30,934 nucleotides of DNA from a virus (lineage: Duplodnaviria > Heunggongvirae > Uroviricota > Caudoviricetes), in IMG/VR virus record IMGVR_UViG_2526164634_000026; one strand, 5' to 3'. The stretch's first letter is position 1. Every line of letters begins with the position of its first letter. The notes under the pieces are model-generated. The model did not search any database. It was not told the DNA's origin and worked only from the letters and a program-made list of their open reading frames with translations. The position numbers were made by a program, and so were the translations under genes. This document shows positions 6,886 through 22,338 of this stretch, piece after piece.

Positions 6886-7018
6886 TTTTTGGGACTCCTG
6901 GCTGATTAAGTATGTCGATAAGGCGTTTCCATCCGTCACGTAATTTACGGGTGATTCGTTCAAGTAAAGATTCGGAAGGGCAGCCAGCAACAGGCCACCC
7001 TGCAATGGCATATTGCAT
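6854..7018 (-). CDS. cIII: Lambda CIII (FtsH/HflB inhibitor), 54 aa
   Basis: Hand-translated from ATG at 7018 (MQYAIAGWP…YPD*, stop at 6854-6856); below the track's 60-aa cutoff; 32-nt overlap with kil as in lambda. Confidence 0.8.
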   Translation of the reverse strand: MQYAIAGWPVAGCPSESLLERITRKLRDGWKRLIDILNQPGVPKNGSNNYGYPD

Positions 7019-7090
7019 GGTGTGCTCCTTATTTATACATAACGAAAAACGCCTCGAGTGAAGCGTAATTGGTATGCGGTAACGCCGCGC

Positions 7091-19337: not shown

Positions 19338-21188
19338 ATGTCGATTAAACATTACGATGTTGTCAGGGCGGCGTCGCCGTCAGACCTTGCGGAAAAGCTG
19401 ACACACAAACTGAAAGAGGGCTGGCAGCCATACGGCGGACCGGTTGCCATTACGCCGTACACACTGATGCAGGCGGTGGCTATTGAAGGAGAGCCACAGG
19501 TCGGCCCTTCATCTGAGCCGGATTGGTACTACGTCATCGTACTGGCCGGGCAGTCCAATGCCATGGCTTACGGTGAAGGGCTTCCGCTGCCGGATTCATA
19601 CGATGCTCCGGATCCGCGCATTAAACAGCTGGCGCGCCGCAGTACAGTGACGCCGGGCGGGGCTGCCTGCAGATATAACGATATTATTCCGGCTGACCAC
19701 TGTCTGCATGATGTGCAGGATATGAGTACGCTGAATCATCCGAGGGCTGACCTGAGCAAAGGGCAGTACGGCTGTGTCGGTCAGGGTTTACATATTGCCA
19801 AAAAACTGCTCCCGTATATCCCGAATAACGCGGGGATCCTGCTGGTACCATGCTGTCGTGGTGGTTCGGCATTTACCCAGGGCGCGGAGGGGACATTCAG
19901 CGAGTCCACGGGGGCCAGTCAGGATTCGGCACGCTGGGGGGTGGGCAAGCCGTTATATCAGGATCTGATTTCCCGCACAAAAGCGGCATTGCAGAAAAAT
20001 CCCAAAAACGTTCTGCTGGCCGTCTGCTGGATGCAGGGTGAGTTTGACATGAGCGCCGCCACCCACGCACAGCAACCTGCGCTGTTTACAGCCATGCTGA
20101 CACAGTTTCGTGCTGACCTCTCCGTGTTTAACGCGCAGTGCCATGGTGGCAGTGCTGCAGATGTGCCGTGGGTTTGTGGTGACACGACGTATTACTGGAA
20201 AAATACATACGCTACCCAGTACGACACCGTGTACGGCGGGTATAAAAACAGGGAGAGTGAGGGCGTTTATTTTGTGCCCTTCATGACAGATGGTAACGGC
20301 GTCAATACCGCCACTAACGCGCCGGCAGAAGATCCGGATATTCCGGCATCAGGATATTACGGTGCGGCATCGAGAACGAATGGAAACCAGGTATCATCAA
20401 ACCGCCCGACACATTTCAGTTCATGGGCGCGCAGGAGCATTATTCCGGATCGTCTGGCAACCGCTATTCTGAACGCAGCCGGGCGCACCTCAGCCTTCAT
20501 CAGTGGTAAGGCACCGGAAATCAAACCCTCGCCCGGCGGCAACACGCCATCGGGTCCGTCTGCAGATACGTCCGTTCGCACAATCTCCCTGCTGCCGGCA
20601 GCCGGAGAGGCTGCTGCGCAGGGCTGGAGCATTAAGGATGGCGGAATTCAGTTGTCAGATGGTGTATTTAAGATCACCAAGCAGAGCAATAAAACCTGGT
20701 CCCTGACGCATCCGGTGGATGACGCAATTACCCTGCTGACACAGGGCGGCAGACTGACCTGTAAGTTCCGCCTGTCAGGCGCACTGACCAACAATCAGTT
20801 CGGGCTGGGGATTTATCTGTATACGGATGCTCCCGTTCCTGATGGTGTGGCGATGACGGGTACCGGTAATCCGTTCCTGATGTCGTACTTCACTCAGACC
20901 ACTGACGGCAGAGTGAATCTGATGCATCACAGGAAAGCCGGAAACACGAAGCTGGGGGAGTTCGGCGATTACGGTAACGACTGGCAGACGCTGGAGCTGG
21001 TGTTCACCGCCGGCAGTGCCACGGTTACTCCGAAACTGAATGGAGTGGCTGGCCCGGCATTCCAGGTTATAAAAGACAGTCTGACACTGGGACTGAATGC
21101 GCTGACGCTGACGGATGTTACAAAAAATGCAGCGTATGGCGTTGAGATAGAAAGTCTGATGCTGGAGATAAATGCACCGGCAGCATAA
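19338..21188 (+). CDS. nanS: Prophage 9-O-acetyl sialic acid esterase NanS-p (DUF1737 + SGNH/SASA esterase)
   Basis: 616-aa ORF; GQSN esterase motif (VLAGQSNAMAYGEG); typical of Stx-phage late regions between Q and S. Confidence 0.8.
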   Translation: MSIKHYDVVRAASPSDLAEKLTHKLKEGWQPYGGPVAITPYTLMQAVAIEGEPQVGPSSEPDWYYVIVLAGQSNAMAYGEGLPLPDSYDAPDPRIKQLARRSTVTPGGAACRYNDIIPADHCLHDVQDMSTLNHPRADLSKGQYGCVGQGLHIAKKLLPYIPNNAGILLVPCCRGGSAFTQGAEGTFSESTGASQDSARWGVGKPLYQDLISRTKAALQKNPKNVLLAVCWMQGEFDMSAATHAQQPALFTAMLTQFRADLSVFNAQCHGGSAADVPWVCGDTTYYWKNTYATQYDTVYGGYKNRESEGVYFVPFMTDGNGVNTATNAPAEDPDIPASGYYGAASRTNGNQVSSNRPTHFSSWARRSIIPDRLATAILNAAGRTSAFISGKAPEIKPSPGGNTPSGPSADTSVRTISLLPAAGEAAAQGWSIKDGGIQLSDGVFKITKQSNKTWSLTHPVDDAITLLTQGGRLTCKFRLSGALTNNQFGLGIYLYTDAPVPDGVAMTGTGNPFLMSYFTQTTDGRVNLMHHRKAGNTKLGEFGDYGNDWQTLELVFTAGSATVTPKLNGVAGPAFQVIKDSLTLGLNALTLTDVTKNAAYGVEIESLMLEINAPAA

Positions 21189-21189
21189 T

Positions 21190-21490
21190 AAAAAAAGCCA
21201 GCGACTGACCTGAAAAAGAAGACGCTGGCTAAAAGGCCTTATATGTTTGTAGAGACTTATTTTTCACAGACAGCAATGATGCCTGTCAATATATTATCAA
21301 TATGCGGATTGTTTCAGTTACAGATGCCTTATTAAGGAAAAAAACAGCCAGCACTGACTTTCGGTGGAGAGGTGCTGGCTCAAAAGGATAGATGTACTTC
21401 ACATGTTGCTTCTATATGGCAGTACATTTTCTGACAGACAGTGACGGATGTTGTCAAGATATTGTGTCATTTATAACCTGAATCAGGGGA
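21190..21490. repeat. Two tandem degenerate direct repeats of about 150 bp, each beginning with an A-run and a GCCAGC…GCTGGC stem
   Basis: Shared blocks gccagc(g)actgac, gctggct(a/c)aaaagg, acagacag…tgtcaa(t/g)atatt at 21190-21337 and 21338-21490. Confidence 0.5.
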
Positions 21491-21554
21491 GGCCGGAATG
21501 TTATCTGGCATTTTTAGCAGAGCCTGAATGCCATAATCACGGCTCCCGGCGTTG

Positions 21555-21590
21555 GCCGTCAGTGGGTGACACTGGCGGCTTTTTTGTTTT
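21555..21590 (+). terminator. Intrinsic terminator immediately upstream of the lysis cassette
   Basis: 10-bp stem (one G-U), 5-nt loop, followed by TTTTTTGTTTT. Confidence 0.55.
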
Positions 21591-21634
21591 CTTTACTTTC
21601 ATTTTCTGTCGGCGGTGACGGAGACATACATCAG

Positions 21635-21841
21635 ATGGAAAAAATCACAACAGGTGTGTCATACACCACGTCAGCGGTGGGGACGGGATACTGGTTACTG
21701 CAGCTGCTGGACAAAGTCTCTCCGTCCCAGTGGGTGGCAATAGGTGTGCTGGGAAGTCTGCTGTTTGGCCTGCTGACGTATCTGACAAATCTTTATTTCA
21801 AGATTAAAGAAGATAAGCGTAAGGCTGCGAGAGGTGAATAA
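21635..21841 (+). CDS. S: Holin S (phage-21-type pinholin, 68 aa)
   Basis: [72 protein letters not shown] Shine-Dalgarno. Confidence 0.85.
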
Positions 21842-22338
21842 TGTCGCCGTCATTACGCAAGGCTGTTGCAGCTGCTATTGGTGGTGGGGCTGTTGCCATA
21901 GCGTCTGTGCTCATCACTGGTCCAGGTGGTAACGATGGTCTGGAAGGTGTCAGCTACATACCATACAAAGATATCGTTGGCGTATGGACTGTATGTCACG
22001 GACACACCGGAAAAGACATCATGCCCGGTAAAACGTATACCGAAGCAGAATGCAAAGCCCTCCTGAATAAAGACCTTGCCACGGTCGCCAGACAAATTAA
22101 CCCGTACATCAACGTCGATATACCGGAAACAACGCGCGGCGCTCTTTACTCGTTCGTTTACAACGTGGGCGCTGGCAATTTCAGAACATCGACGCTTCTT
22201 CGCAAAATAAACCAGGGCGATATCAAAAGCGCATGTGATCAGCTACGGCGCTGGACATACGCTGGCGGTAAGCAATGGAAAGGGCTGATGACTCGCCGCG
22301 AGATTGAGCGTGAAGTCTGTTTGTGGGGGCAACAATGA
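21841..22338 (+). CDS. R: SAR endolysin R (phage-21-type lysozyme with N-terminal signal-anchor-release domain)
   Basis: 165-aa ORF; start overlaps S stop; Gly/Ala-rich SAR segment then lysozyme domain. Confidence 0.9.

Follow-up and report, generated by a model that had tools for sequence, protein, structure and literature searches.

We found that the two degenerate, hairpin-bearing repeats lying between the esterase gene nanS-p and the holin gene S of this prophage are, with high confidence, tandem minus-strand transcription units: unit 2 is pasA, which encodes a published Hfq-binding small RNA (sRNA), and unit 1 is a shorter, diverged copy of it. The feature is real but ordinary and has largely been described; its elements are already known and their sequences match published ones. 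Our own, modest addition is to recognise the pasA locus as a diverged tandem pair, which has apparently not been stated before and went unrecognised in the 2026 survey of the Pas sRNAs, where pasA copies are held not to be products of tandem duplication (Zhu, Shabalina & Storz 2026, 10.64898/2026.05.13.724894); the survey lacks the pair because the downstream copy has diverged too far for a pasA query to find it by BLAST.

The window (the whole stretch of DNA that was analysed, 30,934 nucleotides) is a 434/lambda-like prophage: positions 1331-24120, which run from the integrase gene to cos, are 99.5% identical to OL657226 (phage 434), and the first 24.5 kb, host flank with ybhC included, are 100% identical in prophages of E. 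coli O111:H2 12A and FDAARGOS_1059. Positions 1-1330 have no match to phage 434, and in the E. coli genomes that match, the aligned interval includes annotated ybhC, which is on the lambda attachment-site side; the window thus represents an integrated prophage and no free phage genome. The stretch between nanS-p and S spans 446 bp of the late region, and S is followed by R and then Rz; set against the ORF list, nanS-p is convergent with both minus-strand sRNA genes (Table 1). On the other side of the esterase gene, immediately 5' of it, we observed the sRNA gene pasD2, whose region (19040-19345) matches that of E2348/69 PP2 at 305 of 306 positions; the PasD probe fits 19212-19235 at all but one position, and the terminator reads GGCTGCGCATTGCGCAGCC followed by T8. 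With pasD2 5' and the pasA locus 3', the esterase gene has sRNA genes on either side.

Table 1. Positions in the window of the repeat units, their transcripts and signals, and neighbouring features
Feature	Position	Strand	Remarks
Unit 1	21186-21336		~150 bp
Unit 2	21337-21500		~18 extra nt relative to unit 1
Unit 1 transcript (candidate), ~66-68 nt	21188-21255	-	diverged pasA paralog; equals the 3' part of the 236-nt form
pasA sRNA (unit 2 transcript), 85-86 nt	21338-21423	-	5' end ~21422/21423; U-tail 21344-21338
236-nt minor PasA form	21187-21422	-	reads through terminator 2, stops at terminator 1
Unit 1 terminator hairpin	21196-21230	-	U7 21196-21190; adjoins the nanS-p stop codon
PasA terminator hairpin	21346-21380	-	9-bp stem, 17-nt loop, then U7
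Unit 1 promoter-like block	21256-21295	-	-35 TTGACA 21289-21284; 18-bp spacer ending TGT; GAAAAA 21265-21260
Putative pasA promoter	21424-21463	-	-35 TTGACA 21457-21452; 18-bp spacer ending TGT; CAGAAA 21433-21428
Intrinsic terminator before S	21554-21590	+	stem 21554-21580, T-run ending at 21590; S ATG (21635) 44 nt further on
nanS-p-type SASA family sialate O-acetylesterase, 616 aa	19338-21188	+	ORF list; annotation of 434 and E2348/69 homologs
Class II holin S, 68 aa	21635-21841	+	ORF list; 434 and E2348/69 annotation
R	21841-22338	+	downstream of S, then Rz
pasD2 sRNA gene	19080-19251	+	immediately 5' of nanS-p
lambda cIII thermoregulator	6973-7031	-	Rfam RF01804, 88.5 bits

Each unit carries one hairpin and two shared blocks. 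In hairpin 1, AGCCAGCG (21196-21203) pairs with CGCTGGCT (21223-21230), and in hairpin 2, AGCCAGCAC (21346-21354) pairs with GTGCTGGCT (21372-21380), with an A7 run before each on the plus strand (21190-21196 and 21338-21344); the block ACAGACAG (21266-21273 and 21434-21441) and the block TGTCAA(T/G)ATATT (21284-21295 and 21452-21463) occur once per unit. The internal blocks are 168 bp apart and the hairpins 150 bp because unit 2 has ~18 additional nt. The units align over ~125 nt with gaps at a local score of 64 (vs. 24.2 ± 4.8 in 1000 dinucleotide shuffles, z = 8.2, none as high), so that the two degenerate repeats with common blocks claimed in the preliminary description are indeed present; softer gap scoring was required to align them beyond the first block, to which a stringent local alignment was confined (score 28 vs. 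a shuffle maximum of 27). Their homology is colinear and extends through promoter block, body and terminator, and the sequences suggest that the pair originated by tandem duplication. A covariance model built from related-locus transcripts found two copies in the window and no more, at 88.3 bits for unit 2 and 58.5 bits for unit 1, scores that are not independent because window and unit 1 sequences are in the model.

No conserved ORF covers the units, as had been remarked at the outset: the ORF list holds only mechanical ORFs of 30, 38 and 56 aa there, and a coding explanation was rejected, these ORFs not being retained in single-unit loci, which do not have the stretch spanned by two of the three. 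A tRNA/tmRNA scan gave no match. Searched against Rfam at gathering thresholds, the entire window gave the lambda cIII thermoregulator as sole match, which fits an early left operon of lambda/434 type, and at E ≤ 10 the interval 21100-21700 gave chance-level matches alone (e.g. U12, snoRNAs).

Both hairpins are Rho-independent terminators of the minus strand, and the A-runs, which had been taken for the beginning of each repeat, are really their U-tails. In the minus-strand reading a U7 stretch comes after each hairpin; in the plus-strand reading the hairpins continue into TAAAAGG or TCAAAAGG instead, with no T-run. The curated record of phage 434 annotates both hairpins as minus-strand terminators, and the unit 1 terminator folds on this strand at -16.5 kcal/mol (z = -3.5). 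A terminator scan of the minus strand flagged unit 1 through a sub-stem only and missed unit 2, owing to the 17-nt loop of the latter. When the repeat hairpins were considered as intrinsic terminators of the late, plus strand, neither qualified, and only the separate element at 21554-21590 did.

That separate element is the strong terminator which the preliminary description had placed before S; the scan gave it 11 pairs, 7 of them GC, followed by a T-run, and it is annotated in phage 434. Going by what is generally known of lambdoid late operons, it most likely stops transcription that has not been modified by Q ahead of the lysis genes. The conserved plus-strand stretch from the pasA promoter to S (21480-21600) folds at -45.7 kcal/mol (z = -3.2) into two hairpins (21492-21509 and 21554-21580), with a T-run after each, and in RIL-seq the plus strand of the intergenic region looks like an mRNA target (chimeras with PasB) and unlike an sRNA.

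The identity of unit 2 follows from a direct match to a validated gene. The Northern probe for PasA (GCCAGCACTGACTTTCGGTGGAGAG; taken, like the coordinates, from Pearl Mizrahi et al. 2021, PMC8550237, Table S6) matches 21347-21371 of the plus strand exactly (25/25), and because it is identical to the plus strand, the PasA RNA comes from the minus strand. Window positions 21170-21640 differ from E2348/69 (NC_011601, 743247-743717) by one base, in a T-run well outside pasA, and this is also the sole difference when the intergenic region is compared with 743180-743720. In that strain PasA has been mapped to the minus strand, with 743499 as its start and either 743415 (85 nt, major) or 743264 (236 nt, minor; PMC8550237) as its end; alignment transfers these positions to 21422, 21338 and 21187, respectively. 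It is Northern-validated, Hfq-dependent and has 41 RIL-seq partners there, and the seed proposed for it, GCCAGCACCU, is part of the 5' terminator arm (Fig. S5, PMC8550237). All the features of PasA membership that we looked at were found: the match to the validated gene, the esterase/holin position on the opposite strand, and a 3' stem-loop with poly-U. The same placement, with the sialic acid esterase gene on one side and the holin-lysozyme operon on the other, is reported for pasA and pasC in the survey whose reference PasA phage is YYZ-2008 (NC_011356; Zhu, Shabalina & Storz 2026), and YYZ-2008 is 99.4% identical to this region. Strand and order also agree with PP2 of EPEC E2348/69 (pasD2, SASA esterase, pasA, holin-lysozyme). 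All expression data are from E2348/69, where pasA and unit 1 have the sequence found here, and from homologs in Sakai; Hfq dependence and Hfq-mediated chimeras were reported for the identical sequence in E2348/69 (PMC8550237) and for the homologs in Sakai (PMC4104026).

The anatomy of the locus agrees with Table S6 of PMC8550237, in which PasA has one 5' end and two 3' ends; these imply that the PasA terminator is leaky and that read-through halts at the unit 1 terminator. PasA is treated in the literature as a single gene (PMC8550237; Zhu et al. 2026), whereas here the 150 bp downstream of it are a diverged paralog. A further observation concerns the convergent neighbour: CUGAUGCUGGA occurs at 21156-21166 of the plus strand, in the 3' end of nanS-p, 20 nt ahead of the stop, and for the E2348/69 gene, which is identical, this site has been reported as a motif that PasA targets in RIL-seq, so that PasA may pair with the 3' end of nanS-p mRNA.

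We consider it probable, with some reserve, that unit 1 is independently transcribed as a ~66-nt RNA. RIL-seq recorded a separate minus-strand species, "pasA.E2348C_0688.IGR", which is nearly always the second RNA in chimeras and in this respect sRNA-like (PMC8550237); the escD chimeras place it at 743267-743294(-), corresponding to 21190-21217 in the window, the unit 1 terminator. Table S6 of the same study names EcOnc51 and EcOnc52 (Tree et al. 2014, PMC4104026) as the EHEC homologues, and we read their coordinates, given for the 2014 version of the Sakai genome, on NC_002695.2. The Sakai prophage Sp12 has the tandem layout, and EcOnc51 (2237479-2237555) overlies the terminator half of its unit 2, a PasA-2 allele. 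Sp4 has unit 1 alone after the esterase stop, the pasA unit having been replaced by an IS629 that inserted 20 bp upstream of the unit 1 TTGACA, and EcOnc52 (1181998-1182075, minus) covers unit 1 from past the U-tail to the equivalent of 21255. A 5' boundary at the very position predicted from the unit 1 TTGACA, where IS629 has removed pasA, speaks against the main alternative, which we regard as rather doubtful: that unit 1 is no gene but a decayed duplicate and back-up terminator, catching pasA read-through and shielding nanS-p, and that its Hfq signals are the 3' end of the 236-nt form. The signals could indeed come wholly from the read-through transcript, since it is precisely at the unit 1 terminator that the 236-nt form stops. 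This alternative is also favoured by the interaction count of the "pasA.E2348C_0688.IGR" locus (5 in RIL-seq vs. 41 for PasA; PMC8550237), by the weak -10 of unit 1 and its length, ~18 nt short of PasA, and by the identity of unit 1 copies in several Sakai prophages, on account of which EcOnc52 reads may be multi-mapped from tandem loci elsewhere in that genome. Against it stands the persistence of the unit 1 block, which is invariant in 21 distinct tandem loci and is retained where an insertion sequence removed the pasA unit, as well as in four unit-1-only IMG/VR loci (three of them followed at sequence level).

Candidate promoter elements lie ahead of both transcripts. On the minus strand, TGTCAA reads as a perfect -35 hexamer, TTGACA, in both units, and ACAGACAG reads as CTGTCTGT, closing an 18-bp spacer with TGT in the manner of an extended -10; an AT-rich ATATC lies upstream of the pasA -35. 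The estimated 5' ends, 21422 for PasA and 21255 for EcOnc52, fall 29-30 nt downstream of the perfect TTGACA, which is the spacing of a sigma-70 promoter and favours, without proving it, a promoter of its own for each unit. The -10 hexamers are poor in pasA and unit 1 alike. Apart from one varying spacer position, the pasA block too is invariant across the 21 distinct tandem loci, and the promoter block is intact in 103 of 106 IMG/VR loci that had been retrieved independently of it. In either unit these hexamers are putative promoter elements read from the sequence; Zhu et al. 2026 describe the PasA 5' end as a cleavage product of a longer transcript, and if the end does arise by cleavage, the TTGACA block would not be a promoter.

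A blastn search of the phage collection returned 29 records only, and we therefore drew diversity from IMG/VR prophage contigs, retrieving loci both with the promoter-block pattern and, independently, with the esterase 3' end. Rather than being absent or unconserved in related phages, the tandem layout was the majority form among the 106 esterase-anchored loci with enough downstream sequence (67/106), followed by a PasC-type single unit (22/106), a single unit with a GCCAGTAC/GTACTGGC stem (10/106), unit 1 alone with no downstream pasA unit (4/106), and a promoter block broken by IS insertions or indels (3/106); with three reference loci included (109 in all), the split was the same. In three of the four unit-1-only loci (L029, L037 and L041), as read at sequence level, unit 1 passes into unrelated sequence, which in L037 is the end of an IS3-family element. 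The 21 distinct tandem intergenic sequences vary mostly in the 5' 40 nt of PasA (21383-21425; PasA and PasA-2 alleles) and, at a second spot, by a 2-nt loop indel in hairpin 1, and the promoter blocks, stems and plus-strand terminator are almost invariant.

Because overall divergence among the loci is low, conservation by itself says little. Across 23 distinct transcripts that we aligned, 99.5% of cells in the terminator stem are paired and compensatory changes occur in 2 of 8 stem pairs (G-C and A-U at 13:10 in one, C-G replaced by U-A in two sequences in the other), so that the covariation which the preliminary description had proposed looking for in related prophages is present (score 0.179 vs. 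0.094 ± 0.015 in shuffles, 0/500 as high), with probably only 2-3 independent events behind it.

The suggestion that the repeats are structured RNA elements came closest of three options put forward earlier, but its polarity and mode were wrong, for they are minus-strand units encoding the trans-acting, Hfq-associated sRNA PasA and probably a second such sRNA. We hold it very improbable that the hairpins act instead in cis on the plus-strand late transcript, as an RNA structure or protein site that pauses or processes it and times the lysis genes. They do lie between nanS-p and S, where the late transcript traverses them, and they fold on the plus strand at -25.5 kcal/mol (z = -2.3) and -15.9 kcal/mol (z = -3.0); but neither is followed there by a T-run, a variant in L100 gives a U-G wobble in the minus-strand RNA and a C-A mismatch if read on the plus strand, the shared internal blocks read as promoter elements on the minus strand, and probe polarity, RNA-seq, RIL-seq and CRAC all put stable RNAs on that strand. 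Moreover, ~30% of related loci have a single unit with the holin region unchanged. Protein-binding sites that time lysis, the second of the options, found no evidence: a crude duplex scan with RNAduplex showed neither sRNA to be notably complementary to the S translation-initiation region (z = -1.2 and -0.25), and the duplexes of both sRNAs with the plus strand of the window were dominated by long, unrealistic ones.

The third option, recombination hot spots, fared well in one part, since exchange between the units does occur. One locus (L066) has unit 1 with a PasC loop, a chimeric terminator, and PasC itself looks like a one-unit recombinant of both units, as judged from its sequence; the two chimeras indicate that the units recombine with each other. 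We also noted IS3-family elements (IS629-like, with the end TGAACCGCCCCGG) at ≥5 different points of this 300-bp sRNA stretch, namely ahead of the unit 1 promoter, within either terminator and within the unit 1 body (L037, L102, L103, L140 and L076 of IMG/VR, and Sakai Sp4, L143 831-). In L076 the insertion has replaced the PasA terminator arm, and this locus probably corresponds to 'PasA-3', the form without a terminator in Zhu et al. That the repeats are nothing more than recombination or insertion hot spots or module junctions, with no RNA function, is hardly credible: single, tandem and chimeric layouts (PasC, L066) and the scattered insertions would fit, but stable Hfq-bound RNAs come from the same pasA and unit 1 sequence (PMC8550237), stem pairing is preserved through compensatory changes, and recombination between homologous units is expected without a dedicated function. 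A dedicated hot-spot role is thus unsupported, and the exchange looks like a consequence of homology and tolerance to insertion.

Several known systems resemble the tandem sRNA pair. PasC (E2348/69 PP5) shares its promoter block and most of its body with unit 2 and, like the present locus, sits beside the esterase stop codon, whereas its terminator stem (GCCAGCG/CGCTGGC) and flanks are like those of unit 1; it differs in having one unit and another loop, and in PP5 the plus-strand terminator is followed by ISEc13, not a holin. EcOnc51 and EcOnc52 are Hfq-CRAC sRNA candidates of EHEC O157:H7 Sakai (PMC4104026) that overlie the PasA-2 allele of unit 2 and unit 1, respectively; the Sakai unit 1 has a loop 2 nt shorter and GAGCCAG for AGCCAG, and PasA-2 differs from PasA in the 5' 40 nt. 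The anti-sRNAs AgvB and AsxR (RF02702, RF02703) of Stx/lambdoid prophages are likewise short and Hfq-bound, with genes that lie past pR' in the moron region and run antisense to the late operon, and their 3' parts are conserved while the 5' parts vary; they differ in lying 3' of stx and upstream of the esterase and in being shorter (51-60 nt). Identity with them was rejected, neither family giving a match at the gathering score in the window or at E ≤ 10 in 21100-21700. OmrA/OmrB of E. coli and PrrF1/PrrF2 of Pseudomonas are also adjacent, homologous, same-strand sRNA units with a terminator each, and PrrH is a longer read-through species at prrF1-prrF2. The copies described here are far more diverged than those and of unequal length, and the second copy's own transcription is put forward as probable only. 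Beyond PMC8550237, Zhu et al. 2026 and PMC4104026, we found no functional studies of PasA or EcOnc51/52 in the literature.

In the reading that we favour, each unit has a putative promoter (a perfect -35 TTGACA and a weak, TGn-type -10), a short transcript (85 nt for pasA, probably ~66 nt for unit 1) and a Rho-independent terminator, whose hairpin and U7, together with a U-rich stretch just upstream, form the usual Hfq-binding module; both units run towards nanS-p, on the strand opposite the Q-dependent late operon. Lysogens make PasA, as others have shown for the same pasA sequence; Hfq stabilises it, and through its proposed seed it pairs in trans with host and prophage mRNAs. Part of the PasA transcripts pass their own terminator and stop at that of unit 1, giving the 236-nt form. 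Since the unit 1 terminator adjoins the nanS-p stop, it may in addition act as an insulator, barring antisense transcription from nanS-p.

The late transcript must hold the full complement of both sRNAs, and antisense interaction after induction is accordingly possible. We raise here, as an improbable extension of the tandem-pair reading, that the antisense sRNAs link lysogeny and lysis, with unit 1 an independently expressed third member of the family: in lysogens both would act in trans on mRNAs of host and prophage, and after induction the Q-antiterminated late transcript, which would hold ~236 nt perfectly complementary to the sRNAs, would titrate them, and RNase III would cut the duplexes, splitting the nanS-p message from the S-R-Rz message.

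PasA is among the most connected accessory-genome sRNAs of EPEC, with EcOnc51 and EcOnc52 as its EHEC counterparts, and the window adds a further pasA carrier, a 434/lambda-like prophage next to ybhC, and no new kind of element. The gains are anatomical: the 236-nt "minor PasA" is read-through into unit 1, and EcOnc52 corresponds to unit 1. The tandem-pair anatomy could refine the counting of copy number, variants and RIL-seq reads in the family. If the link between lysogeny and lysis were true, it would alter lysis timing or toxin/esterase output, and unit 1, with a seed of its own, would be a third member of the PasA/PasC family and the locus a true tandem sRNA pair.
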